A program made the translations under genes and the position numbers. Below the pieces are notes generated by a model. That model saw nothing but the letters and a program-made list of their open reading frames with translations. It did not search any database and had not been told where the DNA came from. A stretch of 64,000 bases of DNA from Botryllus schlosseri (taxonomy: Eukaryota), in assembly GCA_051294905.1 (NCBI GenBank), contig CM119372.1, positions 36,582,001-36,646,000 of the forward strand. Reading direction: 5' to 3'. Position 1 is the first letter of the stretch; every line of letters begins with the position of its first letter. Shown here piece by piece: positions 6,001 through 64,000 of this stretch.

Positions 6001-6027
6001 ATATTATCTATACCTGTTATACGTTAG

Positions 6028-6164
6028 CTGCTATACACATCTACAGAACGACTCCGATGCCATTACCATTACATCACGCATTCTGAATACGAAGTATCTT
6101 CGGGGGAATACGTACACTGGAAAAGCAATCCGGAAAGCAATTGCTATGATGCACCACGACAGAG
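6028..6164 (+). CDS. VWA gene exon (YLRGNTYTGKAIRKA motif)
   Basis: ttag|...|gttgga; reads CYTHLQNDSDAITITSRILNTKYLRGNTYTGKAIRKAIAMMHHDR, the typical VWA Y.gG.T.TG.Al segment. Confidence 0.75.
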
Positions 6165-30200: not shown

Positions 30201-30679
30201 TCGTCCTTATTAGTCGGGGAAGGTATAGTTATTATATGTGGAGATGACTCTTGTACATGTTAAGGTCACTCCGAAGCGCATTGATCTTCAAATCTTGATT
30301 CTGAAACGACAAAAAGACAGCATGTATCACAGCAAGCATTTCTGCTAAGTTCAGTCCAACATAATCATCAACAGGGGTAGTTAAGGATACAATTAGCAGA
30401 CGAAAATTGTGCGGTCCACGAAGATATATCAAGTAAGTATCGTGTGCAGCCTGCGAAAGGGCATTTAATTTAGTTGATCTGGTCTGGGATTTCAGGAAAG
30501 CTAAAAAAACTTGAAATCACGAAAGTATAGTTATGCCGATTTTATATATAAATATTTTCGAGGGAGAAAATGTAGGTGATCTGCATTTCCGTAATTCACT
30601 TATGAGTATCCAAGACTGCTGTGGGTAGTCCGATGTAATGGAAATTTGATAAAAAGCTTCGATCTGACGACATTTGTTT

Positions 30680-32851: not shown

Positions 32852-33878
32852 AAAATAAGGCCCGAGGGCAGATGTATCCTAAAGCATTGCAGCACCTTGA
32901 AACTACATCACAGTCGTCGTTGTTATGAGTCATATTGAATGTATGCAGGCTAAATGTTGTAAATCGCTCTAGGAGCAGAAACGTCGCAGAAAAGTAATGC
33001 CTATGGCGGGGTGAATTTAGGGTTGGAATGGGTTAGGTTCATGGCCAGGGTTAGAGCAAAATTTGCGATAATCTTAGGTTAGCTTGGGCTAGTATTGCCG
33101 ATGGGGTTAGGGGTAAGATTAGGGCCAGCTTGGGTTGGATTGAATAACTCGCTATCCTTACACGCTTTGTTTGGACACTCGCTGTCTCGAATGACTCGAC
33201 ATATAAAGTAACATGCTCCTTCATCAAGAGTTGCATGCTCAAATGTCGGGAAGCCATCCAATTCCAGTGCCATATGGCGTATACTTATCAAGGGCGAACT
33301 GTATCCCATGGGCCAATCGATAGCGTATTGTTTTTATAAACTTGAATCACGCCGCATATATGAAAATGATTTTATTCGGACATACGCACCCCCTTCGAAC
33401 AAATTGAAAACCAATTTCACTAGACGCAGACCAATAAACGTTAGCATTTCCTCGCGATGTTATCATTCTCTTTGTGACTAGGTGTGACCCGCGGGCCACA
33501 GGTTTCACATCAATGTTCTTCAAGGTATTAGGTCAGTAACTAATATATAGTGTTTGAATTTAAGTTATTTGGCCGAGCCTTAAGCGAGACCGCCTTGGAT
33601 CACCCGTTTCAATTTGGATTGACCGTTTTTGACAGTGAATGTAACTGTACATCACAAAACTTCGTATTTCAACTGATAACCCACCTCTAGTTGATAAATC
33701 AGATGGCTGATGACTTGTTTGGTGTATCTATCAATCACCATTTTTCCGAAACGCGCGGCCAATAAAAACGATAGGTAGTCTCGTTCGGCGTGTAACGTAC
33801 ATTTCCGAGTGCTGCCAGAAGATAACGACAAGAATCTGTACTTCTTGAGGGATTTGAGTGCTGCGACGGTGTGCGGTT

Positions 33879-34078
33879 TCAGTTCAGTTCAGTGAGCAAA
33901 TATCTAGAGTCCTTACTATTGCGATTCACATTCTCTTTACTTCTCGCGCACAGCGTTAAATTCCCAGTTGAATTCTTCACTTTGACGCTGCTATGAAGGT
34001 GTACTGGCAGGTGTCTATGGCGGTATCTTCTCATGGAGAATCTTATCGGAAGCGTGTTGCCAGAAGGGTTGTATATTC
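33879..34078 (-). CDS. Lyase terminal exon
   Basis: ctccag|GA ATA TAC: (G)IYNPSGNTLPIRFSMRRY...LLTELN-stop; completes YFKIGIY. Confidence 0.9.
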
Positions 34079-40000: not shown

Positions 40001-43000
40001 CAGTGAAATTCTGGACATGTCTGGGAAATTCCGGACGTATGGCAACCCTAGTATAGTGTATCTCGTTTCCCCCATTGTGACAGGCATGAATGCAAAATTT
40101 GGTATCATCAAATGCCGACAGCTTGATTTGCACTTTACGCTATGATGAAATTATTGTATATACACCATTACACCTTTTTCCCACACATGCATTTACATTG
40201 TATGCTGTTCGCAGGTTAACCACTATTGGTCACGAGAGTAACTCACCAATTTTGAAGTAAGGGATTCTGTTGCCATCATTCCTTCCGCACGGACCGCTCC
40301 AGTCTACAATCATTTCGTCATTTATCCACACTCTTATCAAAGCATGGGACGTGAGAATGCCAGGGTTGGTATCTAAACACAGACGCAGCGATTGACTATA
40401 ACACCGTCGCTCACTGCAGTAGGCCTACGTTACTTCATCTAATGTGATGCACAGGAGATGCGGGTAAATTGCAAGAAGGAAAAGAGTTCTTATTCGTCTG
40501 CATTATTGAGGCTCTTGGATGGCAAAGATGCAAAGAAACCGTATGATCATACTGTCATTAATGCGATTTGTCATCTCCAGGCTCGAAACCATAACATACA
40601 GAGGAACAGTCAAACGCTCTCACACAGTGATTCTTAATATATGAGTAATTACGCCCAACGAGCAATTTATCATTTCCTGACGGGTGATTTGACCGAATAA
40701 AACCAAATGCACTTAATATTCAGAAATTTCATTCTACTATTTACTATTAGTTTCGAAAGGAATCTTTTTTGATACTACAAAAAGCCTATGTTACATAACC
40801 GTGCAGGCCGCGTTTTCTCACAGCCGTACCCCTCAGGCCCATCTGTAATCCAGTTTCCACACCTCATACGTGAAACCGGAAAGCAAAAATATGGGAATTG
40901 CATGGGAATTGATAACATTGGAAATGTATATAAGATCCTTTTCAGAAAAGCGCCAGAGATTAATTAGCTTTACCTATGCTACCACTTTAAACAGATCCTA
41001 GAATGTAGGGTAGAGTGGAGGTTGTTACTGTGGGCATTTCATGTTAATCTTAGGGGATTCAATAATTTAGGAGCCATACTTGTATTCGCTAGATGGCGTA
41101 TGCTTGACGATACTTCCTGGTCTGGTCTAAGCGAATATTCTGGATATAGCTGTGATAGGGTACAGTTTGTCAATAGTAGGCTTACCATACGTCCTCTTTT
41201 AAGAGGATTTGTCCTTTTTTTTGACTTTTTTGAAAGTGTCCTCGGAGGACGCCCTTTTGTCCTCTTTTTTGAGATTTTGTCCTCTTTTTTGAAAATTTAG
41301 GTCAGATTTAGAGGAAATTGCGAGTGATAAGCCGCAAATTAGCGCAGAAGTGAAGCTCCGGCGGGCATTTCGGAGGGAAAAGCGGTGATATCAGCTCTGA
41401 GCGAAAAGAAGACCTTTATTTATTTTTTTATTTTTTTTTTAATCATCCACCTTGCAATGTGGAGTGAAAAACGTGATTTTGAGCTCTGAGCGGAAGTGAT
41501 GACCTTTTTTTTTTTTTTTTTTAGTCAACCGATCATGAAGTGGGAAAAATTTACCGGTTTTTGAGAATTCTTCTCCAGTTTTGCATGTCTGAAATTTCTG
41601 AAAAAGTGTCCTCTTTTTTCATTTCCGAAATATGGTAAGCCTAGTCAATAGTAATTGGCCCACCGGACGTTTCCCCACTGTATCTACCGATCTTGTTGGG
41701 ACAATATCTTATTCGTGCTACTATCGTGTCTTATTATATTTGGATATAAGGAAATTCGATCAATTGGAACTTTAAGCAATACACTGTTTTCTACCGTACT
41801 TCAAGATCGCGTATATTTACATCGGGAAACTATAATAGGACTTTGCGGCGCTGTAAGTTGAAGGGAAGACAGCTTACACAGAATCATATAGGCAGTTCAG
41901 CGGCCGCAACAGAGGTCGACCGATTATAATTATCGACCTGGCCGATTATCGAGACCGATATTTGGAACTTTCCCGATTATCGATATCGGCCTATGAAGGC
42001 CGATATTGCGGCCGATATTTTATATATAAAAAAATTCGAAAATATTGGAAATTCAATGCTCCGTGTTCTCAATCTCAATAAATCGATGACGCAAAAGGCG
42101 ATACGTGACAGATTTACCCGTGCAGAACGAGTTTAACTGGCGAGCATGCAGAGAAGCTGCTTCCTGCATTACAATGTACCTCGACTGGACTGATCTGTAT
42201 CACGTTTTGCTTTTTGGGTCATCCCAAATTTCAATGAATGTGCACAATTAGGCAATAATTCTTTTTAATTTCAGTTTTCTCGTTTGTTTTTCAGTTTTCT
42301 ATGGCATGTGCAAGTGCCACCTTGGCTAATAAATAATATTTTAGGCGAAATGGTTCTCTGCTCTTTCCATATTAATATCAGCCTATGATATCAGTTATCG
42401 GCCTTGTGAGTGCGTCGATAATCGGTATAGGTATCGGCCTGCAAAAATCAATATCGGTCGACCTCTAGTGTAGATTCCCAACCGCGGCTTCAAGGTAGCC
42501 TTTCTACGGCTTTGATTGATCTCTAAATATGCTACAAAGTTATATAATAGACAACAGCCGTTGTTCGTATCTATGAATAGTTCTAGTCAATTTATGTATA
42601 TGAATGCTAAAGTGAGATATATTAGTTATGTCTAAAGCCGTCGAATACCAAGAGAATTCTTACAGCAGACTAGCGTCAAACGCAGGTATGAATATCCCGT
42701 CAGCAAGGATATATCTTGAGTTCTGCTTAGCATAGACCTTTATGTGTATTCTCCCGGAAGAGAAAATTACGACAATTTTACTAGCATCAGAGTAACGGCT
42801 CAAGCTAAGTATAAATTGCAGTAAGTCCAATATTACTCGGCGTATAATCCCCCGCAAACCTGTGCATTAAGTGCTGGAATGTATGAAGAGCTATTACCTG
42901 ACGACATAATAGTATGTTGTAGTAATGCTATGCATTACAGTTTATTTCAATGTATAGTAGGGTGGAGTGAAAATGACTTTTTTTTTTTCAAATCAAAAAA

Positions 43001-46000: not shown

Positions 46001-49000
46001 TTGTTTCATCCATGCTACAATCAAACAGTGGAACGACATGTAACGCTCGTAACAGAAGCATCAGCACAAGTTTCGGGATTTGAAAGACGAGATGGCCTCT
46101 CAATTGCCAAAGAATTAAGTCTCGTAAACTGATGAAAAAATTTGCCACAAAAATGCATTTTCAATAAGTCGTTAAATGTGAGTGTTTCATTATGATGTTT
46201 TGAACCGATTTTAAAAGGACTGTGTTGTGAATATATTTGTATTATGGGCCCAATATTCGGTAATGTCAGTGTGTTACTTTTAGATTCAATAAAACTGATG
46301 ACAGATCACAATTCGTCAGAATAAATGCTGAATTTCAACAAAAATGTGCGTATATATTGTTTTGTGGCTATAACTCATTTTGAGTTCACAATAGAGAAAT
46401 CTTTCTTCTTAAGACAGATAGAAACATGAGGAAGCCCCTTTTTGATTTGAAAAAAAGGCATTTTCACTCCACCCTAAATTGTATAGCAGTCGCCAATCCA
46501 CGTCTATCAATGCTTGAATACCCGATATAGAATCTATTGAAGTATTCGTGCATGTTTTTGAATTGGCTTGACGGTGAGATCCAGAGGTAGGCTAGCTACC
46601 TTTAAATTTTCGTTGTAAGTAACGTATACTCGAGTGTTTTCATGCGTCTCCATTGGTACTTTGAGGTTTGAAATGCGGCTCCGACATCCGAAAAGATTGA
46701 GAACCACCGGTGTAGACAATGACCCTGGGGCTTGCTGAATATTTAATACGTTGGCCCCGTGACACCATAATTTTATATAGCAATTGCTGGATAATCAGGT
46801 ATTTCATGATTGAGAGTAGTTGAAGTCCTTCGGGGGTAAGAAACACTGGCCTAACATACCATCTCTTCAGCAAAACATTATTGAATATCAGTATATTTTC
46901 AATCAATATGTAACAAAAAAGTGACTTACGTGTATCTCCGCTGGTGCTGTATTTGCTCCATTTTATCTCCCACTTCATTTTTACCCAGCGATCAAATTGG
47001 AAGCTCCGAGCAGGCATAGTCCAGAGGACGTTGTACTTAGAAAATAAATATGGAATCAGGAATAACCGTAGGAAGAGGCGATTGAAGAGGTTCGTGTTGC
47101 TACTTGGGTAGAAGTAGAGGTAACGCCATGCTACTCAATTACAAGTAGAAATGGTAATTACTGAGACTTCAAAACTGCTGTAAGTAGAAGTAGAAAATGA
47201 ACGATCTTTACCATAGGCCTACTCCACGTAGTTTCAAAATGTATCTTTGGTTGCAATGAGAACTCACATACTTTTGGTAATTAATTGGGGGTGGTCACTT
47301 TGGAAATGGAAGGCTGCAGTGTCGTGACTAAGACCGTATAACTAAAGACGCTGAAAATTGGTGGAATATTCGATAATATAGTCAGCAGTCACCGTGATAG
47401 CTATTTTGTTAGGTTCTTACGACGATTTCACACAAAGAAGTGATGCAGACATATTCCAAACTGCTTTTCTACTTTCTCATATTCAAAGATTAAAAAAGTT
47501 ACTTGTTTTGATAGAAAACTGTTCTAGCAGAAGTGGAAACAGTCACCTCATGAGTGAGCATGTGAAAGTACGCAAAACCAAATTAAGTACTTCGAAAAAG
47601 TATAAGTACTTCGTTACTGACCAACAGTGCATAGCGTACAGGTCAAACTTTGTTGAAGTAAGATTTTGACTACCACACAGAGTCATATGAAACCAACTTG
47701 TTGCCGAGGATGATCCGGGCACCTAACTGATGCTAAACCAGATTTCGGACACCCTCCTTTTTCTATGAACAACCTTTCATCCGACATGGCTGTTATCATG
47801 AAGTGCCCTTGCTTCAAGGACATCACCAACGGCGGATACCCGCCCTGGTTGTAATTTATCCCAATAAACTTGTTGTGATCGTCGAATATGTCACCTGCAA
47901 CGAAGCAATCTTGAAATTAGGAATATGAAAGGAGAAGTGTTCTATCTGCAATTGCATGCATATGGACTAAATCGAATCACAATGGGATCGTACTCTACCT
48001 GCAGTATTCACGCTAGAATAAGCAAATGCAGTCAATCTAGTCCAGTGTTTCTCAAACATATTTCAAACACGCCCCCCCCCCCCCCCTTGTAGATAGAGAA
48101 AAATTGGGCGCCCTCCTTTTCGTCGTATCAAAAAATATTAAAAAGAGCAACCAGAAGGTTTGAAATCAAAATGCACAGTTTGATAGTAGGTAAGATCATC
48201 ACTGTTGGTAGACCTCTCAAATATCAAATCCGGACAGCACACAGAGCAATATATTTATGAGCTGGAAGCAAATCGCGAAAAAACTTTCAGTTGAATATTT
48301 TGTCAAGAATAAAGGTGTGGCATGCGGGTAGCGCGTTCGATACACATATTTTAGCGATTTTGGAGTCTAATCCCTCTATTTCCTGACGTGGGCTTGGCTT
48401 AAACGTACCTGACCAGTGACCATATAGGGTAAATCAGAAACCTATGGCGCCGGCCGCACGCCATCAAAACTTGGCACTATATACCATGTACAAACGATTT
48501 TTCTCTTCGAGTCGCAGGTGTTCAACAAGAGAGTAGTCGGAGACGTTTTAAGCCACTTTGATGGGAATCCTTGCTTTTCGCTGCATATTATACGTGGCAT
48601 ATGACATGACCTTACAAGCACATATCTTATTTCTTCATAACTTTGTTTCTTTCTACGCACTCCATACAGATGCCTCACAGACAGACCATAAAAGCATCAG
48701 CGAACACTTACACGTGTTCTCCAGCCAATCCTTATTCAGAGACATCTACTGATTGGTGCTAAGTCCGGTATAAGTCACAATATATAGCATCGGTGTATGG
48801 ATAGCACGACGCTATATACCAGGGGTCGGGAACCCTTTTTGACCAAAGAGCCATAGTGACCCAATATTTTCAATAGTAACTCCCGAAAAGCCATACATGT
48901 CAATCAACTGCTACGTCACAATTGGAAATTCGTGACGTATTGGTGGCACTAATATATGGGATTCGTATAGTGTGTGCCATATTTTTCTGTCCACATGCGT

Positions 49001-52000
49001 AGGTGGAGCCAAACATGGTCACTATATCAGTACATAGGCTACCCACTGCAGGGTGTGATACGTCAGTGACTTGGGGTTAAGGGAGGCAAGTGAGGCAGTG
49101 CCTCACATGTCGTCAGGGATGTGTGAGGGAAAATTGTGAAACCTTCAATGATTATTGGTATTTTTTATCGATGTTTATGATTGATTAGATTTTAAACATT
49201 TTCATTCCCAAAATCATTGGAATTTTCATATTTATTTCGAAAATAAAGCGCGAAAGGGCCAAGCCTCACCAGTGATAGCGCAACTCATCGGAAATACCTT
49301 AGAATTTATCATCACTGATATTACTCGAACGAAATTGTCGCGCTGATTCCGAAAATCATAATATTGATCGACTGCTAAAGTATTTGGCGTAACATAACGC
49401 TACACAGCTACATTTTACGGTGGTTCTAGAAAGCTACTTGCGTTACCAATCAAGAACTTGGATAGCTATGGCGTTGTTTTTAATTTGAATTTGTAATTGG
49501 TAATGTCACTTCAAAGGAAGTTCATTTATCGGCGTAGATCAGGAACACAATGTGTATTTGAAAGCTGCATTTTCCTACAAACGTCGACATGTCAATGTAT
49601 CAATCAAGGTATTGTACAATCCAAGATTTCGAGGCGCGCGATGGCGGGTGGATCGAATTCGCTAGTGGTGTCAGTCGCCGGCGCGACAGCTACTTCAGTT
49701 TGAGGATTTTGAAAAGGGGGGTATGAGCCCCTAACCCTGGTTACCCCACTGTCTTGACCTCTCAAAGACATGTTTATGTTGTCACGAGAATAATTATTTG
49801 GGCCGTCATGAAAATCTACCAACAGGTTGCTGCAATTTTGATAAATTAAGAAGAAAATTAAAAATTTATCAAAGGGCCATATCTTATACCCAAAAGAGCC
49901 ATATATGGCTCGCGAGCAATAGGTTCCCGACAACTGCTATATACTATGACATTCGACACTCGACACACAGCGTTTGGGCGGGCTGACAAAGTATAAATTC
50001 AGTTCCTGGATAGGGGGTACGAGATACATTTCAGGAAAACTCAAGTGGGACGAGCGCTAGAAAGGTTAAGAAACAATGGATTGGAGGTTTGAAATGCTCG
50101 ATAATACACAGAAGCGATGTTTATATTCACGGTATATCTCAAATAGGAAGGTCTCCCGTATTGAAGAACCCCTGATCTATCGAAGTCGGTACATGTATAA
50201 TGCAAAATGATTCGATATCGAGGTATTGCTCGAATACTAACAATTTTTGCCCAATTTTCTGACAATAGAGCATATCATCATTTTGGAAACCACAAACAGG
50301 TATACCTACAGGGCAGGGGTTGGGAACCAATGGCTCGCGAGTCAAATACTACTCTTTTGATGATATAATATGGCTCTTCGATAAATTTCCAATTCCCATT
50401 TTATTTATCAATATTGCCGCACGTTAAAATAAAATTAAAATGTGAAGCTTGCAAAAGGTTTCCGACCCCTAATGCTAAGCTTAATTTTCTCATGTTCAAC
50501 TGTCGTTTTTCATTACGTCGAGCGCGCTCAAATATTTACCATATTTTGAGATTGGGAAAGAAGGACATTTTCACAGTCTCCAGAGGTTACTGAAGCGGAA
50601 TAGAAAACCATATTTATGCAGGGTTAGGGTTGATTACAAATAAAAAAAAATAAAAAAGGCCATTTTCCGATTTGACTCCCGAAATACCCGCCTATCTTTT
50701 AGGCCAAAATTTAACGTCTTTCGTGGAATTTTGGGGCATTTAAGGCTAAGAAGGAGGACGAATTGTCAAAAAATGAGACATCTGGGCGGAGGAAAGATAT
50801 TTCATCAAAAAGGAAGACAAATCCTTCTAAAGGAGGAGGTATGGTAACCCTATATATCATCACATCTGCGTATACACGGAAATATGGTGCACACGACGGA
50901 TATCATGTAGTGAGCTTCGATTTCGGACCACGGTGACGTCACAAATCGTCAGTTGTGACGTACCAGTCAATTGAACTCATGGTATGGCCCTTTCAGAATT
51001 ACAATTGACAATATGAGGTAAACATTACTCTTTGAGGAAAAAGGTTCCCGACCCCTCTACATACATACTTTGGTCACAGTAGCCTTTGGAACACAGTCTG
51101 TGAACATCCACAGCAGATACCTTTGCGATGCATTTGTTGTTGTCTCGTAACAATGTAGGGTCGGCCGATCCGTGCCATTGAGTGATTATATACTGAGCAC
51201 CGAAATTAATGTCATCTTTCCCGATGTATATCTCATATTCGTATACGTGCAGGTGGTCAAGCGGTAAGTGGGAAATGGGACACATGGTCTTCACAAGTAT
51301 TTCTGTATTCAAAATGAAGTGTAATGATGTAAGCCAGTATTGAGATATAAGTTTTCATTGCAGTTGTTTTGTTGGGGAAGGGTGAATAATACACTAATAC
51401 TACGCACCAGGGATAAATATATCTAATATTGGTTCTCATTCTAGGGAAATGGCACCATTTTTCTTCAGCGCCCCCATTACCGCGCCAATGTGCCCAGCGC
51501 CCCCCCCCCCCCATATCAACCCCCGAGTGTTTCCGCCACCTTCAAATTTCAAATCGCCCCTTGTCGGCGCTGGAGACAAGGTTGAAAAGAACTGGTTTAG
51601 AATTTGACGTGTACAAATATCTGATGTTTATTTTGTTAAATCGAGGCAAGGGCAGTATAATGTCAATACTCGAAGAAGGTGACTCTCATTAGTCGACTCG
51701 AATTATCCGAGTACCCGAATGATTGTGACCAGCATTAGCAGACAATACCCGTTATTTTCGGAGGAGGTGCATCCGTATCTGTAGACAATTCCGTTGTTCC
51801 CTCCCTGTACCATGTTGAATACAAACTTACCAAATTCGTTCGGTACCTCCCCGTACTTCTTGATCACTTCCTCCTCCTCATTGTAACAAGTGGTAAGTTC
51901 CAATCTGGATTTTCCACCCACGTTATTTGGTACGAATGAAAACCTAGGTAGTAAAACATGGAGTTACAGAAAAATTGCAGGAATCGAACTCATATTTAAA

Positions 52001-55000
52001 CCTGGAGATTGAGCTTATACGGTTTCGTACTGCAAGACCTTAAACGAGTCTACGATTTGGACGCTCTCAGTAACCTACTGCAAAATAGACATCTGAAACG
52101 ATTCTCCCATTTGCTCTCCAAATGGAAGGCATACCAGTCAAATGGACAGAAAAGGTTCAGTGAAGACAAAATTCCTCCAGAATCCAGACACACATCAAAC
52201 CTGTTAACTTCTATATTTTAACTGCCGACAACACTGTAAAACTATTCGTGTAAGAAAAATGAGGTGCATTGGACTTTTTGTCCGATTCGGAAGAATGGAT
52301 ATATTTGTAATTTCGACATGTATCCCTCAGAATGACAAACATGCCAACGAAATAATATCTACTTAACTGAATCCAAAGGACAAAATTTAGTAAATTGTGG
52401 AATACTGCGCAGTAAATAGGTGCAGTCTAAAACACGACCACTTGAAGAACTAGTGCAGGTAGACAAATTCTACTTGAGTACACCTAGCAAGCGAAATTAT
52501 TTTGTCATTGACCACCATATCACACCGTTCAAAATATTTAAATTTGTTGTCTGCTACGGTTACACTCATCATGTTGTGTTTTGTGTTGCCAACAACTAAC
52601 AGTTTAAATGAGAGAAATGCGATGCATTATCGATCATGTAGAATTTGAAGCACTGTGATTTAATCCTATCCGTGTCGTCACGATGTGAATGGTAGACGTT
52701 CGGTTGCTGACAGGGCTTTGCAGCTGGAGCCGGAGCAATGAGCCGGAGCCCCGGAGCTGTGCATTTTCAACGGAGCCGGAGCTGGATCCGGAGATCTAAA
52801 TAAAATTCTGATGGAGCCGGAGCTGAAGCCGGTTATTTAAAAAGTAGCTCCGGCTCCGATCAATTTTATAAAATGCTATGCTAATAACTTCGGCTGAATT
52901 CACAAAATTTTACGGTAATCGCTCAAAAAATTAAGAATTGTTGGCTCGTTGGCGCCACCTTTTTTAAACTAAGCATGTTCAAATTGTTCAATGTTCATAC
53001 ATAACGCGCAAAACCTGGGTATGCGAGATATGTAGTACATTACTATATACTGGGACGTGGTTACTCGTCATACCCGCAATTTCGTCATCAGCACAACACT
53101 GATGGCCAATAGGGCGGTTCGAAAATATTGATCACTTTGTATTTCACAAAATGGGACTGGTGCTTATGTCAGCTGAGCAAACTAAGTAATGAGTAATTAG
53201 CCAGTGGTTCGCAAAGTGTGGTACGAGTACCTACGGTGGTACACGAGAGCTTGTCAAGTGGTACGCAAAGAGTGCCGTGAGTAATGTCGTATCTCAGATT
53301 GACGAGCTTCTGCATAAGAAACAGATGCAATTATCTCATTATCTCTTGTTATCCGTTGGTGTTGCCGTAAAGTACTAACAGGAATAACCAAAAAACACCG
53401 GTACATTCAAGTAAAATAAGTGATTCAGGTGGTACGACCTGTAGTGAAGAACAAGTTAGTGGTACGCCATGTGGTAAAAAAAAAACTAATTATTGGTACG
53501 CGACGGGAAAAATTTTGAGAAACACTGCATTAGACGAAGCGACGCCAGAGGCTAAACGTGACCTTGCTACACTTGCACATGTCGATTTGGAGGCGCGCAC
53601 GCAGATATACTGTACTCCGTCTATACTCTCGGAATTAGGCGAGCAATATGCCCGTTTTTTGGTGATAGCTTTATAATCATACGTTGAAATTTAACAGTGT
53701 GATAGTGTGTGCCTGCGAATTGGAATTCAATCTTGCGCATGATCGTGTATTGCTGTAAGGATCTGCGAACGTAATTAGAGAAACGCATCCCAGAACGCGA
53801 ATTAGTAGAAAACGAATTTCTACTGATATGGCTGCGACATGGGCAATTAAACAATCCCACAATTTCAAGATTTCAGTCAACTGTATGGCTTGATATAGCA
53901 AGTGCAGCGCCGGTAATAAAACGTCGCATTCGTGTTTTGGGATGCGGTACGCAGCAATGCCCTGGCGTGAGTTCTCATGCGGGTATGACGTTTTCGACAG
54001 TCAACATGGAGTAATTATGACGTCACAGAACTGTGCCACAAAATAACGGGTCGGCTCGACGGCCCCCGGCGCAACGGTAGTTATTGACTACATGACTGAA
54101 CCATTCGATAGTTTACCGAGGTTAAGCTGGAGCCGGAGCAGCGGTATCAATGAGCTCCGGAGCTTGGAGCCGGAGCCAATTCATCATAGAAGAGAGCTGC
54201 GGAGCCGGAGCTGGAGCAGTTTAAAATTTGTGCCAGCTTCAAAGCCCTGGTTACTGAGCGTATTGGTGATATCTGTGCACTTATACAGAGATTAAACAAA
54301 GCTGGACATCTCACCTATAAACGTTGGAGCCTCGACCGCTCCGTTCTTTCGCAGTGCCAAGTTCGCTGTTTGTCCCATTGATACCATAAGATACGATTGC
54401 GAATTGTTCATCGAAGATATGTTCTGCGCAGATAACTGATACATTGATGTAACTCTAACCCATATAGTTGTAACAGTATTTTGTTATTCGATCGCATGTG
54501 GTGAATAAACATATAAAATCGTGTAATCAAAGCAGTTATCGATGCTACTCAAGTATAATCTGGAGCAGGGGTGGGCAGTTATTTTTCCCCGCGGGCCAAA
54601 TGAAGTAGAAAATACATTGGCGGGCCGAGTCAACATTTTAAACTACATTCTGTGGTGTAGTAATTGTATTTCTAAATTGAAAGCAGTGAATAACATTGTA
54701 AATACATGGCGCTCAGTGGATGTATTGAAATTAGGCAGCGAGAAAGTGACGGTTAATTAACAAAAACAATATTTATTCGTCGTCATAATTCAAAACGATG
54801 GTAGGCATGATACATTTTAAATTCTTTTGTTAACCCGGAGACGCGTTTTTGAGATAGGCCTACTATACAAAGCTTTTCTTGGTCGCCTTTCTTTTTTTTT
54901 TGACATCGTTTCATCACGAGCACTGATTGACTTGTTTTAGGAATTAGGGATTTGGAAACGTGTCGCGTAGCAATTCGAAGCACGGATTGTGTAAATGTGT

Positions 55001-58000
55001 CACTGGCAACAAAGAAGGCTTGAACGACACTATGTAAACAGTGACTTTTCGCGTCTTCAATTGTTACGACGCACTTCGCTACATTGGCTTTATTTTGACT
55101 CTCTATTACTCGTATGACGTACGTAGGCTACGTGGTCGACGCAAATAAATAGACAGACTAAATAGTGAACGAATGTCCGGTTCAGTTGATGCAGCCTACG
55201 ATTCTAGTTCACGGATTTACATTCCAAAGTAGGTTTTATGTACTGAATTCCTGGCAACTTTGCGCGAGCCACTGAAAATCGCGTCGCGGGCCACTCAAAA
55301 CGGCGTTGCGGGCCGCATTTGGCCCGCGGGCCGCACTTTGCCCAGGTCTGATCTGGAGTACGGATATCGGAGATGCGCTAACACTACTGGAAGTAGAAGT
55401 ATATCGAAAGGTTCCGAGTGAAATCGAGTGCGTTGATATTATTGGAAAATTATCTTGGGGCAAGGCGTGGTGAACGTTTGCTACTCGATCGCCAGTGGAA
55501 ACTCTAAAATTAAAAGCATGTACTTCTCGACTAAGACAGAATGAACAAAGAAGCAACAATTGTATAAGGTGCAGTGTCGCCCTTTTATTTGCGATGAGGG
55601 AACTATATACAGAGGTGGTCAAAGTAGTCAAGAAAGCTACTCAAGTAGAAGTAGAAGTAGCGACGAAAAAATCTACTCAAGTACAAGTAGAAGTACTTCT
55701 TTCATGAGCAACCTAAAACTACTTGAAGTAGAAGTAGAATTGACTGACTCTAGAAGTACTCAAGTAAGTAAGTAGTTGTGAAAACGATCCTGATTGGATG
55801 GATTATAAAAAGGTGCAAATTGAGCTATGTGATAGGTGACGAGCTTGATTGATATTGATGCATACCAGCAGGTATCCACTTTTCTATAGCATAAGCATTC
55901 GTCCACATCATGGGATGAAAATGATAGTATGGATAAGGAAATGCGATACTAATCCTCTGTTTTCTCGAACAACACGTTTTGGAAAATAGCATGGTATGGC
56001 GTCATCCCCCATATTATAAGGCCCGTAGTTTAGTCGAAGAGCAATATGGAGAAGTTGTATAGGATACAGTGTAAACACTTTGTGCGATTAGTAAACGTTA
56101 ATAAAAGATATGGTGGACCGTAAAATAGCCATATTGTGTAGCTTTATTTCCAGAAATTTAAGGCATTACGGCACTTACTTTTATACTTCAACATGTATGT
56201 TATTCGGATAACAGAACTGATATTAATTATAACTCAAAGTATATGATACTGGGAATTTAAAGTGAAATATAAATACTACTTCTAAAAGCAGAATATGTAT
56301 TTCATGTTTTTAGTCAAGAAAGTTTCAAAGGTGGTATGCTAAAACAGCTCTAAAATTAAAAAAAAAAAACAAAGTTCACTCTTCCAGATTAGGACACGCC
56401 ATGGACATATATGCTAGATTACGATATGACAAGAAAATGCTAGATTGCGAAACATCAGCTTCAAAGGTTATGATGAGCCATACGTACTGTGATGAATTAT
56501 TTCATATGGGTGAAGGGCGACAGTGTGGTGTGAACGGAACCACGCCAACCTTCCACCTAAGTTATATTCACCGATACTTTCGTGAAATCATACTGCATGG
56601 TCACTCCGTATTTACTGGTCGCGAAGCGCGACGAACATTCTGTGCTTTACTAAACGTTTATGAAAATTAAATGGTAATACTCCTTGAAAACAGCCCCGAA
56701 ATTCATCAGGCTATCTTCCTGATTGGAAGATTTAACTACTTCTACTTGACAAACTGAAAATAGCGAAAAGTAAGTAAGTAGATCACAAAATATTAACAAG
56801 TAGAAGTAGAAGTAGCGAAAATCAGATCTACTTGAGTGAGTACCAGAAGTAGAGGAAAACTACTTGAGTACTTCGAAAAAGTAGAAGTACTTCGTTACTG
56901 ACCACCTCTGACTATATATCGGACATACTTGTTAGATTTTGTTTCTTATATCCACATCCAGGAATGACGTTTTAATTGACAGATTTAGACATCTAGCATA
57001 CTTCGTTTCGCAAACTGTTGAAATAGAAATGTTAACATGAAATAAAGAAAACTCCAGACGAGCAAGTATAGGCTATAGAGAAAACTTAATTGAGCATCAG
57101 TTGATCACTCCATACCTAATTTATAGTAGCCAATTTGTTGCACATCTGAAAAAAATACTTATAAGTATTATTATCTTTTTTTTTGTACAACAATTTTTAG
57201 TTGGTTTGTGCGAATGAAATTTATGTTCCAAAAAAAGTGCGAATTGAGCTCAAAAAGGTTGAAAAGCACTGCTCTGTAGCAGTGTTTCCCCAAACTTTTT
57301 GAACGAATAAAGTGCCAGCGTCCCCCGACCCCCTTGCCACGCCTAAATCATAAAACGAAAATTTTTCTGCGTTTATTACAGCTAATCATGAGACATATGA
57401 AGCTGGAATATTATTATCATCATCCTCGTCATATTGGGATGAGTTTTGATAAGAGCAATTTCATTCTAAAATTTCCAGTCTCTATGTACCGTAGGCCTAC
57501 TGTCAATAATTTTGTGGGATTTTCAACCGATGGTATCTGCTGTGATTCAGAAATTTTGTCATGCTCTGGAAACACGTTCTATCAAATATGAGTGGGGAAG
57601 GGCAACGACGAAAAAGTCAACTCGACTTCAGTCAGAGTATTTCAATTTTAGTTAATTGTGCATCAAGAACGATCGACTGGATATATTGAACTTTGAGTTG
57701 AACTCAAAATTGTTCTACACTCAATGTAATCAGCTCGCATCAATCATTTCATGCTTGGAAACTTTACACAATGAATTGATTATCCTGTAAGGAATTTCTA
57801 ATTTGAATATATCTTGTAATCAAATCGCCATATCCTCGTGGAGTGTTCTAAAATTAAGTTTTGTACCCCAAATGGCTTGTTCTAAGATGATTGATTAATT
57901 TTCTCCATCAAAATCGGGTAGCCTTACTCCAGCTGGACCGGTAGCTCATGCAAGCTTGAGAATTGGAACAGTTCACGAGTCTCAGAATTTCGGTGAAATA

Positions 58001-61000
58001 TCACGGTCTTATCACTGAATCCAGACAGTGCCATTTCAGCTTTATCAGGTTTCATCATTACTAAGAACTGATATATTCTACTCATAAATTTTGCAAAATA
58101 TGCCCATCAAGTAGAAGCGATATCGTTTCTAGCAACCAGAACGTCGTGTCGCAGCACAGTGGAAAATCCACGATAGGTTAAAAAATTGAAATAGAGAATA
58201 AACTCACGCAATACAGTTTCTCTTAAAAATCCATCACACCTTGCAGTGAGCAATAACTGCTCAAATACTTCGTAGTTTTCACAGCACACTATGAATCACG
58301 CTTTCTAGGGATTCCACCGACTGCTAATTAGTCCATTGATGGCAGGATCAACATTGTTATGTAGCAATGGAGTTTTCCTGTACAGCTGATTAAATAGACG
58401 GACGACCTTGAATTGTCTTGACTGGATCGATTTTTCATTTTTACTGGTGCTTTTTTCGTCAATCGTTTCAACACTACGCAGCAGTTGCCTTCTAAACCTA
58501 CACCGCCCCATTTGCTCTCCCAGCACCCCCTACCACCCAATTTTATAGCGAGCCCCCCCCCCCCCATTTGATGGTCAGCACCACCTTCACGCTCGCGAAT
58601 GCCCCCAGGGGGCGCTGGCACCAACTTTCGGAACCACTGCTCTATAGAGTATAGTGCCCTTTCGCAATGGAGAGTAGCAGCATTTGTGAATTCTACTTCC
58701 ATACGCCAATGTGGGGCCGGTTCAAGTCCGACCGAGGTATAGACTCCAGTATTCCTCCAAAATGTTGGAGGTTTATCTATCTATCCTCGACCTCCGATTC
58801 GTAAGCAGTGTCTTGAAGGCTATTGCACAATAAAGCGGACCGTGCGATAAGTTGGAATCATAAAATAGGATTATTGGCATGGTGCAAGCAGGGATATCTA
58901 GATATCCCTGGGTGCAAATGACCAGAGATGTCGAAACACTAAGGCTGTTCATCTGTTTTGTTACTTGACCACGTCGAATTACTAATAGGAATATCCTTAC
59001 CTGTGGACACAGGCGACTTCGAAGGCACGGAGTATAAGCGACGCGGAATGATTTTCCATCGTAATTTATCCAATCGTGACTTCGACCAAACTGCAACGGA
59101 AGCGAGTAATTCAGTCAACTTTAGTAGTCAATTGATACCATTATTCGGATTAAGGCGCCGAATTTTTCCATATATTTTTCTGCTTTTATTATTTTTCGGA
59201 AGAGACTCATACCGTGATGAGATTCGACGACTACGAAAATAAAACCTTAGATAATGTCATAGATGTGATATGTATGCGCAGATTTAGCAAAATATGACTT
59301 TCATAGGCAGTTCGCGATTTTTGAAACAAATGCCCAAACTTGGATAAGCTCTATATGACATTGCAATAATTGATATTAATCAGTGTTGGGATGACTCGAG
59401 TCAGGCTCGAGTCAAATTTTTTGCATGACTTGACTTGACTCGAGTCATTTTGCAAAAGTGACTTGACTTGACTCGGCGTGCGTCTCAAAAATGCGGATTG
59501 ACTCGTGACTCGGAGCTAAATTTACGAGTCAATTTCAAGTTATCAAGTAATCGCTGTCGATAAAAATCGCTGTACTTTACAAATGTTCGGATTGTTCTCG
59601 ATGCGCTGGTGTGACTTGTGAGAGCGACAAATCTCCTTCATTCAATGATTTTGCGTTTTACTGCGCCTTCATTGTTTTATCACAAATTATTGACCGCTTA
59701 CAGCGTACGTTGTCGCAGTAGTAAAGTAATATAATAGCAAGGCATCTATCTCTGTTCTCTAGACTGGTCATTAGTATGCTCGGTTAGTCATTAATCACCC
59801 TAATCAAATATCTTGTATGATCTAAATCGAATTCGAATATAGTTTACAAGTTTATATTACTAGTCAAGCATTGGCACAGGCTTAAATCCCATGGATAAGT
59901 AGTTGGGTATGCATCACATCAATTCGTTGCCCCTATCTGAGGTTTCGTATTCTATTCTCTATTTTTGGCGAATTAATAAAGACTGAGGTTATGCAACAGT
60001 TACGTAATTTAGTAGTACTACGCATTCGTGACCTGTACACCGCCATTTTGCATTTAACTCTATATTCATCCCTCGATTTAAAATGAATTACTTGACTTGA
60101 CTCGAGACACCTCCAAAATCGAGTAACTTGACTTGACTCCAGTCACTTTCAAAAATCTATTGACTTGACTTGACTCGAGACGACTTGTGGCTCGAAGGTA
60201 GTGACTTGATCCCAACACCGATAACAATGTCGGCAAGTCGTGTTCATGTAGTTAGATAATATGAAAAAGATTTCGATGCGTAATATCGAAAAATGGGTGA
60301 TATTATTTGATATATATTTTCTATTCAAGTCTTTTTCTGCTGCAAGCACTATAAAGTTGGATGTTGACCTACTTATGCCACGCATTTGAAAAAACTCCTA
60401 GATTTGAACTTAAACACAATTCCAACTGACGGGGTGTAGTCTCCTCCTTTCCGTCTGCAATCGTAGAATCGTAAGCGATGGCACCATATCCTGATCCTGA
60501 GGTCTCTGTCAAGTACGGACACACACTAAGTGACATTTAACCGAACTCATTATAGAACACGCATCCGCTGGACCGATGTCAGTTTTATTGCGAATGAGAT
60601 CGGGTTACGAATAGAAAAACAACTCAAATATATCCGAGGCAATTCCTCGTGGTTGGAGAAACGAAAGTGACTCATTCTTCGTGAATCATAAGGCTCGTTA
60701 CCATACTTTTACAAGAATGCAACTTATCTACAATTTTTATCACAACACAAGTCGTATAATATAATTTTCGTATTGAATTGACTTGTGCAGGACTCGAACA
60801 ACTTATATGATTCGAGACTTGAGCGGCCAGGACGGGCATTTCATTACAACCTCGAAGAAGAGTAAAGTTACAACATTATAATTACAATAATTATTGGTAT
60901 TTCGTATGTAATTAATGGTATTTAAAAAACCCGACCAGAAGCAGTTGAGAGTGAGTAAAATTAGAGTATTACGAATGTGGAGTGTTCGATATTAGCCAAG

Positions 61001-63840
61001 CCTCCATGTAAAAGGCGAGCTGAACATTACTTGATCTCGAAGAATAAAAGTGAACGAACACAGTGACTTGGACTCTGACTAGAGTGTCAATACTATGACT
61101 GGAACTCGAGTTTTAACACAATGACCCGGACTTGCCCTGCGCCTTCCTAATAGGACTTGGACATTACTCGGTAGTAAATGAAAAGGTTTCGACATGACTC
61201 GAGTCAAAACTATATGAGTGAGATTGACTTGTGATTTGGCTACAACCCTGGAGATAGTACGATGTATAGGCAGCTGATAACAAAAACGTTTAGGCGTTAC
61301 CTTATGTAATTCTGTAAAATATATTTCTGCACCGATTCCATGTTAAACAATAGATTTTCGTCGCTTGCCTTTCGTCCTGAGCCCTCATCCATTTTTGCGA
61401 ACACTCACCAAACGTGGGTTCACGAATATAAAACTATATCCCACCAATATCCGGCGAAGTTTCAATTACCAGTATGAACAACTGAGATAATAAATCACTA
61501 TATTCTTGGCAGGTCGCCTAAAAATACGTGCGTGCTGCAGTCTACCCAGATTTTAGATAGGAAATTATTAATTTCTATACCTATCCATCAACTTTAGAGC
61601 TCACGAAATAATGCAACAACAAACTCAAAGCCAACACAGCAGTAACGAAATATTCCTTGGGCCATAAGTCGATGACGATCAAAAGTTTGTTTGCATGACA
61701 CTTTGACTCCGCCAACACAGATTTCATTCAATATTTCGAGCATAGGTATGATTTCGACCACGGAATGCTGCGGATTGCGACGGTTAAAAGCGCTTCTTTA
61801 GACAAAATTAATCAGTACTTAGCCATAAATGAACTAAACTTTATTGTGCTAGCGGAGATTGCAACTGGGAAATGCACCAATTACCGGTCATACAGCTTAT
61901 GTATCACAAGGGCGTTAAACCCGACATGAACTACCTTCCCCTTTGAGGCATAGTATTTCGATTTGCCATTCGAATGTTCGGCTACTGAAATTAAAGTTCA
62001 TCAAAATATCTGAATAATACGCTTCATCAAAAGCGATATGTATAAAGCAAGAGATTATTATGCAAGACCAAAAGATCCGTGTTGTAAATATCAACATAGG
62101 AAGTTAAGGGGACTAGCAACCCAAAAAATCAAAGTTTTTGATTATTTTTTGTGGTAAGAAATATTGACATTGTATCTCTGATGTCACCTTATGGCCATTT
62201 TTCACCCAAACAATAACTAAAAACTGCAAAATTTCTATTTTATTTTCCTTCGATGATTGTGGGGGGGGGGGTGTTTTTTTTCAAGCTCCAACCAAAAGAT
62301 CGCATGTTTCGTCCGATGACACTATAAAATATATGGTTTGACAGTTATAAAATATATCTATCTATATTATCTCCGGGTACAAATTTGTTAGATTGTTGTC
62401 AGTTGGCATTCTAGCATTCTGGCACTCATTCTTATCATAACATCGGTAACACTTATTCATTGACTTTTTACGTTTCAAGTGTTTGATAGTCGTTTTATCA
62501 ATTGTAAAATTTTGTTACGTTGCATCACGGCAAACCAAAACTTTGTGTGAAATATGTGTCGTAAATGCGTCACTCAAGGTTTTTTGAAAAGCTGAGATTC
62601 AGACTTGTGCTATGCTAAAAGTTTTTAGTCATAGGTCTACCATGTCAAGAGGTACAGAACGTCACAGCAAACTTACAGCAAATATATGACAAAATTTGCG
62701 ATTTTTTTGAATTTTTGAATTTCGAAATGAAATTTCTCCGAGGTGGGTTGCATGTAATCCTTCAAATTTTAGCATAGCACAGTACTGTCCTAGTACTTCC
62801 TAAAGAAGACGTTAGATCGGAAAAAGGGCTTCACAATATCGAGATTTTGCATTCCCCGTGTCGGTGCATTTTCTGTCCTTGAAATACTAAAAAATCCACA
62901 ATCTGCAAGGTAGAACGAAAATTGTTGGTTTTTTGTTTATAGCATAGCGACATCCAGCAACTGTGAAAATTTCATGGTGATGGGGGTAGCCATCCGAAAT
63001 TTAGGTTTTTTGGTTGCCAGTCCCCTTAAATGCAATATTGCTCTTTTTTCTGTCTTTATGATATTTGTTTGCATAATATTAACAATTTATATCGAAGTGC
63101 TCATCATGTTTACAATTCCCCATCTATTACCTCCATCTCCTGAAAATTCCCTCCTCGAGTCGCCAATTCCTTCAGTCACTGAAAATAAAGACACGAAAAT
63201 TCGAGTCAATTTCAAGGTGGCTCTGGGTGTGTGGCTGTATTATGATAGTATCAATTGGAATAGTTCCGCGAAACTCAGAGCAGTTTGTGAAATTACCAGC
63301 GTGGCCTCACGTGACGTCAGAGCTTCGTGTTCACGTTCCCATTCACACCAAACCTTTTATTGAAGTTCGTGTTTACACGATCCGGAACTATCTAGGGGTT
63401 CGCACCATCCCTATATATACATGCCACATTTCCTGAGTGGAGACTGGCTGTGATGATAGGTATTCATTTTCAAACGATCATGACTCTTCCGGGTCTCTCA
63501 CATTGATTTGCCGGGCCATATTTGGCCTAGGGGCCACAGTGTATACATTTCTTCAGTGCCCGATTACATATGGGAAGTACTGATTTTATCGATCAATTAT
63601 GGTGAGTTTACTTTACTTAGCACAGTAAAACAAGAATCAATGCATTAGCATTTAGCGTAGGCCACTCACATATAATATCGCAAATCTTTCCTTTATAGCC
63701 ATAATCGCAAATGCAAGTCTTATTGATACTTGGGATTCCGTAGATGCAAGCATTAGCCACCCCACTGCCAGATTCCTCGCTTCTACGTGAAGGGTACACG
63801 GCAGAGGTCGATGCATCCTGTGGCAGTGATCGAACAATTT
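33879..63840 (-). CDS. Multi-exon gene: heparin lyase I-like (PL13-like) polysaccharide lyase with upstream EGF-like exon; 5' end beyond the window
   Basis: Exons 63670-63840, 61885-61984, 60373-60525, 59001-59090, 54315-54423, 51831-51943, 51069-51302, 47698-47894, 46930-47035, 40247-40372, 33879-34078, all with AG/GT borders. All phases are compatible except the 60373-to-59090 join. Motif order matches bacterial heparinase I. Confidence 0.85.
36057..37154. mobile_element. hAT-type element with tccgga repeats
   Basis: TIR tagggttgccata / tatggtaacccta; flanking tacca repeated. Confidence 0.8.
37262..40050. mobile_element. Inverted sister of 36057-37154 with nested hAT element at 37518-39153
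   Basis: TIR tagggttaccata / tatggcaacccta; perfect TSD gtatagtg; inner element has perfect TSD gtataggg. Confidence 0.9.
40247..40372 (-). CDS. Lyase exon (GRND...YFKI)
   Basis: gtttag|...G|gtgagt; (H)TNPGILTSHALIRVWINDEMIVDWSGPCGRNDGNRIPYFKI. Confidence 0.9.
41177..41643. mobile_element. hAT-type MITE with gtcctc repeats
   Basis: TIR taggcttaccata / tatggtaagccta; perfect TSD gtcaatag. Confidence 0.9.
41910..42466. mobile_element. MITE with ccgata/tatcgg repeats
   Basis: TIR agaggtcgaccgat / atcggtcgacctct; no matching TSD seen. Confidence 0.7.
43033..44568. mobile_element. Buster-like hAT MITE nested in the hATm-like element, itself carrying a gactcg MITE (about 43440-43980)
   Basis: TIR cagtggttcccaacc / ggttgggaaccactg; perfect TSD acctaaaa. 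Confidence 0.9.
44726..46429. repeat. Long inverted repeat: arms 44726-45399 and 45757-46429, spacer ~357 nt
   Basis: The arms are reverse complements with only scattered differences; ORFs 45023-45400(-) and 45765-46043(+) encode nearly the same peptide. Confidence 0.95.
46930..47035 (-). CDS. Lyase exon
   Basis: ttttctaag|TAC...C|gtaagt; YNVLWTMPARSFQFDRWVKMKWEIKWSKYSTSGDT. Confidence 0.9.
47698..47894 (-). CDS. Lyase exon (QGGYPPL)
   Basis: ttgcag|...CAA|gttggt; (S)DIFDDHNKFIGINYNQGGYPPLVMSLKQGHFMITAMSDERLFIEKGGCPKSGLASVRCPDHPRQQ. Confidence 0.9.
48820..49936. mobile_element. Buster-like hAT MITE
   Basis: TIR caggggtcgggaacc / ggttcccgacaactg; perfect TSD ctatatac. Confidence 0.85.
51069..51302 (-). 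CDS. Lyase exon (catalytic QWHG)
   Basis: aatacag|...A|gtatgt; (E)ILVKTMCPISHLPLDHLHVYEYEIYIGKDDINFGAQYIITQWHGSADPTLLRDNNKCIAKVSAVDVHRLCSKGYCDQ. Confidence 0.9.
51831..51943 (-). CDS. Lyase exon (KSRLEL)
   Basis: acctag|...G|gtaagt; (R)FSFVPNNVGGKSRLELTTCYNEEEEVIKKYGEVPNEF. Confidence 0.9.
52711..54249. mobile_element. hAT-type MITE with gagccg repeats; nested element at about 53202-53527
   Basis: TIR cagggctttg / caaagccctg; TSD gttgctga/gttactga. Confidence 0.9.
54315..54423 (-). CDS. Lyase exon (start of catalytic domain)
   Basis: gcgcag|...AG|gtgaga; HIFDEQFAIVSYGINGTNSELGTAKERSGRGSNVYR, phase 2 into FSF. Confidence 0.8.
54566..55350. mobile_element. Buster-like hAT MITE
   Basis: TIR caggggtgggca / tgcccaggtctg; perfect TSD atctggag. 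Confidence 0.85.
55610..56910. mobile_element. hAT-type MITE (agtaga family), longer form
   Basis: TIR cagaggtggtca / tgaccacctctg; perfect TSD actatata. Confidence 0.9.
57280..58639 (-). mobile_element. Buster-like hAT derivative with decayed transposase
   Basis: TIR cagtgtttccc / ggaaccactg; TSD ctctgtag/ctctatag; minus strand near 57560-57620 reads FFVVALPHSYLIERVSRA (cf. Buster-type FPSSYLVERGFS). Confidence 0.75.
59001..59090 (-). CDS. Probable lyase-gene exon (linker)
   Basis: ttccgttgcag|...CAG|gtaagg; the phase-1 frame WSKSRLDKLRWKIIPRRLYSVPSKSPVST joins the 54423 exon in frame. Confidence 0.6.
59381..60220. mobile_element. gactcgagtc-family MITE
   Basis: TIR cagtgttgggat / atcccaacaccg; TSD atattaat/ataacaat; inverted relative to 13033-13928. 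Confidence 0.85.
60373..60525 (-). CDS. Probable lyase-gene exon
   Basis: cacttag|...AA|gtaggt; VCPYLTETSGSGYGAIAYDSTIADGKEETTPRQLELCLSSNLGVFSNAWH, in phase with the 61885 exon. Confidence 0.6.
   Translation of the reverse strand, partial: CVSVLDRDLRIRIWCHRLRFYDCRRKGGDYTPSVGIVFKFKSRSFFKCVA
61885..61984 (-). CDS. Probable lyase-gene exon
   Basis: taatttcag|...CG|gtaatt; (L)AEHSNGKSKYYASKGKVVHVGFNALVIHKLYD(R); phase 1 in, phase 2 out. Confidence 0.6.
62108..63025. mobile_element. Non-autonomous TTAA-target DNA transposon (Kolobok-like ends)
   Basis: ttaa|ggggactagcaacccaaaaa ... tttttggttgccagtcccc|ttaa. Confidence 0.7.
63670..63840 (-). CDS. EGF-like exon (phase 1-1)
   Basis: tttctacag|...T|gtgagt; ...NACIYGIPSINKTCICDYGYKGKICDII contains CxCxxGYxGxxC. 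Confidence 0.8.
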
Positions 63841-64000
63841 CTGTAGAAATAGTCTCTGATCAATCCCACTGATGAAAAAAGTAGTTGAATTTGATGTAGG
63901 GCCTATTTCGCTATTTGTATTCACTTTGATACAAACGCACAATTAATATTTTCTTAACTCTATACAACAGTAATAATAAAAAGAGACCATCCATTTTATT

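Follow-up and report, generated by a model that had tools for sequence, protein, structure and literature searches.

A heparinase I-like lyase gene with an EGF-like exon in the tunicate Botryllus schlosseri

On the minus strand of contig CM119372.1 (assembly GCA_051294905.1), Botryllus schlosseri carries a gene in which an exon for a module resembling epidermal growth factor (EGF) stands in front of a domain resembling bacterial heparinase I, of polysaccharide lyase family 13 (PL13). The window, that is, the whole stretch of DNA analysed, covers 64,000 nucleotides (nt), from position 36,582,001 to 36,646,000 of the contig, and all coordinates below count from its first letter. Thirteen exons of the gene are visible, from 63840 to 30232, coding for 558 amino acids, with the 5′ end beyond the window. 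It is almost certain that the EGF exon and the lyase exons make up one gene: one contig holds them, they keep a single open frame, and the same architecture is found in four named ascidian proteins. This bears out the fusion proposed in an initial annotation of the DNA, made from its letters alone. The product is likely to be a secreted, probably trimeric, proteoglycan-like lyase of heparin or heparan sulfate (HS), belonging to tunicates.

Two runs of raw reads and two runs of contigs (X1 and X2) were placed on positions 46801-64000. We took X1 and X2 to be RNA, which is a guess, and their GT-AG joints argue for it. The contig that matters most, X2 record 9 (1991 nt, depth 15.8), matches the window in collinear pieces at 47698-47891, 51067-51302, 51831-51941, 54313-54423 and 63670-63841, uniting the EGF exon with four lyase exons, in order. 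Between 54423 and 63670 it has 213 nt, the sum of 48, 75 and 90 nt for exons 2-4. On the 3′ side of 47698 the contig has 739 letters, a length that agrees with exons 9-13 and would put the end at 30132, 14 nt beyond an AATAAA at 30151-30146; about 214 letters upstream of the EGF exon fall outside the window. Joints 63178/63670 and 51941/54313 are each present in both X1 and X2 (two of the four runs), and the X2 depth of the bin 63447-64000, 4.9, equals that of exon 63670-63840 alone. The three further exons announced earlier on the way to the lyase have held, the one at 63178-63131 through its splice joint, and those at 60505-60431 and 59090-59001, with more reserve, through the 213-nt gap and the orthologues. 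The claim that no start codon or signal peptide lies in between also stands, because the sole weak signal-like candidate among the 170 ATGs of 54424-63670 (ATG 59771, in phase 1) does not fit the 213-nt gap. The exons, and an element of intron 2, are as follows.

Exon 1, 63670..63840, minus strand: phase 1-1, 171 nt; Ser-rich linker with SGSG, then the four-cysteine EGF-like module; in contigs X1 record 7 and X2 record 9.
Exon 2, 63131..63178, minus strand: phase 1-1; stalk, with SGDG; joint 63178/63670 (CT..AC) in X1 and X2, with a 48-letter side in X2.
Exon 3, 60431..60505, minus strand: predicted, phase 1-1; stalk, with SGSG; ranks first among eight 75-nt candidates and, with exons 2 and 4, accounts for the 213-nt gap; similar motif in Styela.
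Exon 4, 59001..59090, minus strand: predicted, phase 1-1; the folded lyase region begins; W..S.LD.L.W motif common with orthologues.
Exon 5, 54315..54423, minus strand: phase 1-2; N-terminal strands of the lyase; supported by a contig piece and, in both X1 and X2, by joint 51941/54313.
Exon 6, 51831..51943, minus strand: carries R178 (heparinase I R83); contig and alignment.
Exon 7, 51069..51302, minus strand: QWH motif, with Q244, H246 and D250 (Q149, H151 and D155).
Exon 8, 47698..47894, minus strand: QGGYPPL motif; contig and alignment.
Exon 9, 46930..47035, minus strand: lyase strands; by homology, with a length consistent with the contig bookkeeping.
Exon 10, 40247..40372, minus strand: R412, N413, D414 and K422 (R344, N345, D346 and K353); by homology and length bookkeeping.
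Exon 11, 33917..34078, minus strand: predicted by homology; Y426 (Y357) and the beginning of a tunicate-specific tail.
Exon 12, 33685..33860, minus strand: predicted, behind a 56-nt GT-AG intron (33916-33861); tail domain, where the coiled coil begins.
Exon 13, coding part with stop, 30232..30300, minus strand: predicted; the coiled coil ends; AATAAA at 30151-30146.
Intron 2 element, 62104..63029: resembles a miniature inverted-repeat transposable element (MITE), with terminal inverted repeats of 33 nt; lies 100 nt below exon 2 and is a possible source of an alternative 3′ end.

The model has no internal stop, and every splice end is AG or GT. Exons 10-13 lie outside the transcript-mapped stretch, and their basis is homology and length bookkeeping. 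Over 58 amino acids, the peptide of exon 12 has 45% identity with the tail of the Styela protein (E 1e-15 among 11 proteins), and the acceptor of exon 13 ranks first of 1085 candidates with a score of 43 (mean -92, standard deviation 41, runner-up 32). The gene extends to a coiled-coil tail, a point absent from the initial annotation. A frameshift near 33885, or an early stop at 33879, was considered and rejected: the 56-nt intron explains it, and the peptide behind resembles the Styela tail. A first model of the linker, with an exon at 61984-61935 and 59090-59001 in phase 0, was dropped because exon 54423-54315 needs phase 1, as was a candidate exon at 52074-52021, which joint 51941/54313 skips. 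Two 75-nt rivals of exon 3, 62009-61935 and 60781-60707, were excluded because the X2 depths of their bins, 1.41 and 0.47, are below the 2.1 expected from such an exon at depth 15.8. Beyond the donor of exon 6 the frame remains open for about 40 codons (51830-51703, minus strand), and two Ciona protein isoforms (X1 and X2, here P0024 and P0026) have 20 extra residues at the equivalent position; the exon 6 junction may therefore be alternatively spliced. At position 47892, contig X2 record 9 has a different letter that would change Asp282 into His, probably an allele.

Exon 1, with CAG and GTGAGT at its ends, is open in one frame and is entered and left in phase 1. It terminates in the motif C-x2-G-x7-C-x-C-x3-Y-x-G-x2-C, of which the window, read in all six frames, contains a single instance and 100 base shuffles none, confirming the phase 1-1 exon with a four-cysteine EGF-like motif described earlier. 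We say 'EGF-like' because one cysteine pair of the canonical EGF is absent: instead of six cysteines and three disulfides, four cysteines are found in the window and in all 16 copies of the motif, these having been retrieved with a four-cysteine pattern. One Ciona copy per species has an additional cysteine-free N-flank. In the PDB, the closest likenesses of exon 1 are Jagged-1 and epiregulin (E 0.16-0.35), and the whole Ciona and Phallusia proteins pass profiles of the EGF clan (26.8 and 26.9 bits). The module is bounded by phase 1 introns, its exon also including 31 linker residues, and its copy number among relatives ranges from 0 to 3, which would fit modular gain and duplication. Exon shuffling, suggested at the outset, is a plausible origin for this exon, to which both the 1-1 class and the variable number of modules point. 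However, the phase is a weak proof, because 10 of the 13 introns are in phase 1, including those that flank lyase exons 7, 10 and 11, so that exons of the lyase domain are of the 1-1 class too.

Eighteen matches came out of a full scan with exon 7, including Ciona intestinalis LOC100183141, Phallusia mammillata CAB3262777.1 and C. savignyi H2ZIW5. Clavelina LOC143465657 and Styela clava LOC120347141 emerged from subsequent searches, while a word-index protein search with exon 7 retained none of 13 candidates. Full-length orthologues are laid out as a hydrophobic N-terminus, EGF-like modules, an acidic Ser-Gly stalk, a PF14099 domain and a helical or coiled-coil tail. The EGF-like motif and the lyase share one chain in the Styela, Ciona, Phallusia and C. 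savignyi proteins and in homologues P0029 and P0038, with two EGF-like copies in Styela, three in Ciona, three in Phallusia, one in P0029 and none in Clavelina, the window showing one. From the EGF module onward, identity with Styela and with P0029 is 40%, and the window model groups with both (99/98) in a tree of 32 rows built with no outgroup (the window, 8 tunicate-type sequences, 6 sequences of a GC-rich marine group described below, and 17 of 81 bacterial proteins; fragments and metagenome locus L166 were excluded). As the layout is common to Styela, Ciona and Phallusia, the fusion would predate the split between stolidobranchs and phlebobranchs and, judging from these sequences, is old and conserved in ascidians. 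The Clavelina protein (P0030) has a signal-like start, no EGF, and replacements of three residues of heparinase I (H151 by Q, Y357 by N and K353 by R); it is probably a catalytically dead paralogue, and on this account dead copies would exist in the family.

Exons 7 and 8 taken singly have weak matches to heparin lyase I, in order, and the Ciona protein matches it at E 1e-16. Against Pfam PF14099, orthologues reach 44.9-67.2 bits for a cut-off of 29.9, and a single window exon 12.6; searches of the PDB with exons 10 and 6 gave no match, and with exon 12 one match at chance level. The structural model of orthologue P0029 has a mean predicted local distance difference test (pLDDT) of 62.6, high across the lyase core, and in a Foldseek search with it ranks 1 to 7 are all heparinase I (E 5e-22 to 1.5e-20), the next family being at 2e-9. 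Residues were checked against heparinase I of B. thetaiotaomicron (locus L016), the numbering being verified at all 11 positions. Nine of the 11 are identical: R83, Q149, H151, D155, R344, N345, D346, K353 and Y357. In the window protein the His/Tyr pair and the Gln are H246 (H151), Y426 (Y357) and Q244 (Q149), and the basic residues of the substrate site are R178 (R83), R412 (R344) and K422 (K353). We take Y357 and Q149 to have catalytic roles in heparinase I. For H151, the base, and for R83, R344 and K353, roles are given in the available part of a preprint (bioRxiv 2023.02.14.528460). An active heparin or HS lyase is the probable prediction from this set of conserved residues.

The 99 residues N-terminal to the lyase contain four SGxG against 0.21 expected from shuffles. 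This motif is enriched in the N-region of all six proteins tested (p 0.003 or less), and the corresponding Ser-Gly region of the P0029 model (residues 83-183) has a pLDDT below 50. Ser-Gly in an unstructured acidic context is the signal for attachment (xylosylation) of glycosaminoglycan (GAG) chains, according to the accessible part of PMC10570366. The linker exons resemble the core of a proteoglycan, which the initial annotation had not mentioned, and their motifs give the stalk about an even chance of being glycanated. At the other end, the Ciona tail (722-800) was modelled in three copies, a number chosen from what we take to be a trimer motif. It scored 0.68 against 0.06 for the best control, with contacts agreeing between runs at 63% or more and a pLDDT of at least 55. 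Among solved microbial proteins, 21 of 30 pairs and 0 of 23 single chains attain the mark set for such models; for eukaryotic ones the figures are 17 of 29 and 0 of 30. The heptad positions of the Ciona tail are retained in the window alignment; an Atlas search with the tail gave no usable match. Whether the protein is a trimer through its tail is, from this modelling, an evenly balanced matter.

As to where the lyase comes from, bacterial heparinase I and the window model have an identity of about 26%, the best E value for 81 proteins being 1e-22. A GC-rich marine group comprises proteins P0032, P0033 and P0039 and four metagenome loci (L166-L169), these loci having 58-66% GC and no intron over the gene. 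Its members have a signal-like start and no EGF, keep the catalytic residues, and are probably unicellular eukaryotes; Pfam was blank for three open reading frames neighbouring the metagenome loci. No close prokaryotic relative was found: none of 21 pattern stretches, and none of 84 GTDB loci with the motif, contains a homologue. A metagenome scan with P0033 gave 0 of 69, and an Atlas search with the lyase only generic PF14099 clusters. The direct bacterial origin assumed at first is not established, the nearest non-tunicate relatives being the GC-rich marine sequences rather than bacteria, in a tree of the three groups that is unrooted, with long branches, and therefore cannot name a donor. 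Sequence comparison would place the gene in a branch of PL13 that is of eukaryote type and has escaped sampling. This branch, about 26% identical to the heparinases now employed, may have a different cleavage specificity.

We would assemble these elements as follows. A signal peptide, encoded outside the window, would be followed in order by one or more four-cysteine EGF-like modules, a disordered acidic Ser-Gly stalk, the PL13 beta-jelly-roll and the coiled-coil tail. The protein would be secreted and would associate with itself through the tail, probably as a trimer, and its host-type EGF/Ser-Gly part, probably bearing GAG chains, would position the enzyme in the matrix or among granule contents. 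The lyase would have entered the tunicate lineage once from outside, to be joined to its modules before stolidobranchs and phlebobranchs split. Taken with all its parts, namely an active trimeric heparin/HS lyase that is itself a proteoglycan, with a foreign PL13, perhaps from a marine protist, flanked by a host EGF/Ser-Gly core on one side and by a coiled coil on the other, this scheme is tentative, and we regard the full combination as rather doubtful.

Several observations weigh against it or against its components. The raw-read runs have depths of 0.06/0.03 and 0/0 on the EGF bin, with no joints listed; the contig is an assembly and not a single molecule; the three joints between exons 2 and 5 are absent among the joints listed, and none was seen 3′ of 46801. 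Exon 1 matches the Pfam profile EGF_Teneurin at E 0.006 and 17 bits, under the cut-off of 24.3. In the lyase, the calcium site (ligands as in the accessible part of PMC6688311) is identical at three of five positions (D155, N345 and D346), E222 becoming N296 and W248 becoming L322. Because the identity with Bacteroidota heparinase I is about 26%, with large loop differences, the substrate may have shifted. Fold, trimer and signal peptide were examined on orthologues standing in for the window protein, and the short hydrophobic stretch at the N-terminus of these orthologues is signal-like by hydropathy only. Finally, the tail job used three copies and its calibration pairs, and coiled coils may pass through likeness to solved ones.

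It would be very surprising if the EGF exon came from a short gene of its own, or chiefly from a transcript that lacks the lyase and ends in intron 2. Such a transcript is suggested, and the fusion put in question, by X1 record 7, where the EGF exon is spliced to exon 2 and then runs unspliced through intron 2 to 62961, its frame meeting a stop 15 codons into the intron. X1 contigs tile 62276-63178, from exon 2 down, and since they cover the MITE-like element to near an AATAAA at 62244, a short EGF-only isoform is possible. But X2 record 9 joins EGF and lyase exons, the orthologues of four named ascidians are fused, and the lyase has no convincing start of its own, so that X1 record 7 represents at most a pre-mRNA or a minor isoform lacking the lyase. 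The location of the fused protein had been left between a secreted and a type II membrane enzyme. That it is extracellular remains most likely, and it is probably secreted rather than type II, because no internal membrane segment was found in the window model or in eight relatives (19-residue hydropathy maximum 0.88-1.31). A type II, Golgi-type enzyme with an uncleaved N-terminal anchor, for which the EGF/Ser-Gly part would be a stem, is quite unlikely. The N-terminal stretch of P0029 is in its favour, being strongly hydrophobic (mean 3.56 over 10 residues) behind two basic residues, as is the location of the window protein's own N-terminus outside the window; in Ciona, Phallusia and Styela, however, the stretch is short and then followed by small residues, which we read as in cleaved signals.

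A different history would involve no transfer into tunicates, but an old eukaryotic branch of PL13 that tunicates and some protists retained and that the other animals lost. Tunicate and GC-rich marine sequences score a mean of 120 bits with each other (30% identity), which exceeds what either reaches with Bacteroidota (77 and 73 bits, about 25%), and they have GIYNP and a cysteine pattern in common. Nevertheless, many losses would be required, and no named non-tunicate animal protein appears among 18, 7 and 7 matches (names checked for 20 and for those printed), which makes this history rather improbable; the tree bears on the question with no outgroup and with long branches that meet. Returning to a lyase acquired by tunicates, its substrate is slightly more likely to be a host than a food glycan. 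The same chimera could serve digestion or defence, as a lyase acting on foreign sulfated polyuronides of algae, bacteria or the mucus net rather than on host heparin. Ascidians are filter feeders, other foreign genes of Ciona are discussed as digestive in the parts available of PMC13390645, an animal PL14 alginate lyase exists (5gmt), and the closest non-tunicate relatives, from GC-rich marine, probable unicellular eukaryotes, need not meet heparin. Such a role is nonetheless unlikely, with every checked heparin-contact and catalytic residue kept, EGF and Ser-Gly modules that suit placement in a matrix, and heparin-type chains made by ascidians themselves, Styela plicata producing heparin/HS rich in 2-O-sulfated iduronate (PMC6627333, as far as available). 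Still less probable is a non-catalytic heparin-binding proteoglycan that would use the lyase fold as a lectin. The Clavelina copy altered at H151, Y357 and K353 and the two calcium-site residues that differ in the window would fit it, but H151 and Y357 are each present in 10 of 11 eukaryote-type homologues aligned, and both are kept in the window.

The window has other features. Dispersed short-repeat elements in introns (59418-60196, 55610-56910 and 43500-43960) take most of the RNA depth and create many false joints, and intron 9 contains, at 44871-46305, an apparently inverted duplicate stretch with transposase-like frames for which Pfam was blank. On the plus strand are found a Death domain (983-1294; PF00531, E 2e-10), a weak VWA match (6002-6241; E 0.1) and a 243-codon open stretch without family (8269-8997).

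The gene family is already in databases, labelled 'uncharacterized'. The open, non-subscription literature searched yielded no paper describing this gene or any PL13 from an animal, nor any mention of four ascidian orthologue identifiers. A 2026 survey of foreign genes in Ciona (PMC13390645) has, in its available parts, eight groups, none of them a lyase, and weak homologues fall under its 1e-25 threshold; the lyase gene was not found in its main text and one supplement file, where one isoform accession was searched and where genes may be given as RefSeq identifiers without names. No lyase is named in two supplement files of PMC3494510 or in the available part of PMC7540406. Lyases of GAGs are treated as microbial tools in what is accessible of PMC11848413. 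If the enzyme is active, here would be an animal that degrades its own heparin through a type of reaction described until now from microbes. Hydrolases are the enzymes generally credited with cleaving HS in animals; a chordate lineage would have gained a means of remodelling, by elimination, its heparin and the HS of its basement membranes, with an enzyme that might trim, or be restrained by, its own GAG chains. A conserved, expressed PL13 with EGF and proteoglycan-like modules in the sister group of vertebrates would then be a clear instance of domestication of a foreign enzyme through fusion to extracellular parts of its host.

How this gene compares with known systems can be followed along the chain. 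In the EGF-like module, the C-x-C-x-G[YF]xGxxC core is that of the nearest profiles, the two-disulfide EGF-like EGF_Teneurin (PF23106) and JAG1-like_EGF2 (PF21795), and the exon ends in phase 1, three residues past the last cysteine; it differs from EGF profiles in having four rather than six cysteines, the window copy being under the Pfam cut-offs. The stalk has the clustered SG/SGxG, in an acidic disordered region, of secreted proteoglycan cores (sequons of the syndecan, glypican and betaglycan type), whereas here, with glycanation predicted from motifs, they are borne by an enzyme predicted to cleave such chains. The lyase shares nine residues and, in the orthologue model, the fold of heparin lyase I, or heparinase I, of CAZy PL13 (B. 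thetaiotaomicron, PDB 3IKW/3ILR/3INA; B. eggerthii, 9GRW). Unlike the bacterial gene, that of the window is rich in introns, with an EGF-like module and a Ser-Gly stalk in front, a coiled-coil tail behind and extra cysteines; E222 and W248 are replaced, identity is about 26%, and activity is predicted from sequence. The ascidian 'uncharacterized' proteins LOC100183141, LOC120347141 and H2ZIW5 have the same layout, and their PF14099 and EGF matches are precomputed in databases, but they have two or three EGF-like modules where the window has one. Like other foreign genes of tunicates (cellulose synthase, GH6-1 and the eight groups of PMC13390645) and like the mollusc PL14 (PDB 5GMT), this would be a carbohydrate enzyme of microbial type fixed, with introns, in an animal genome; it differs from them in being absent from Table 1 of PMC13390645, in having an animal GAG as its predicted substrate and in being fused to host-type modules.

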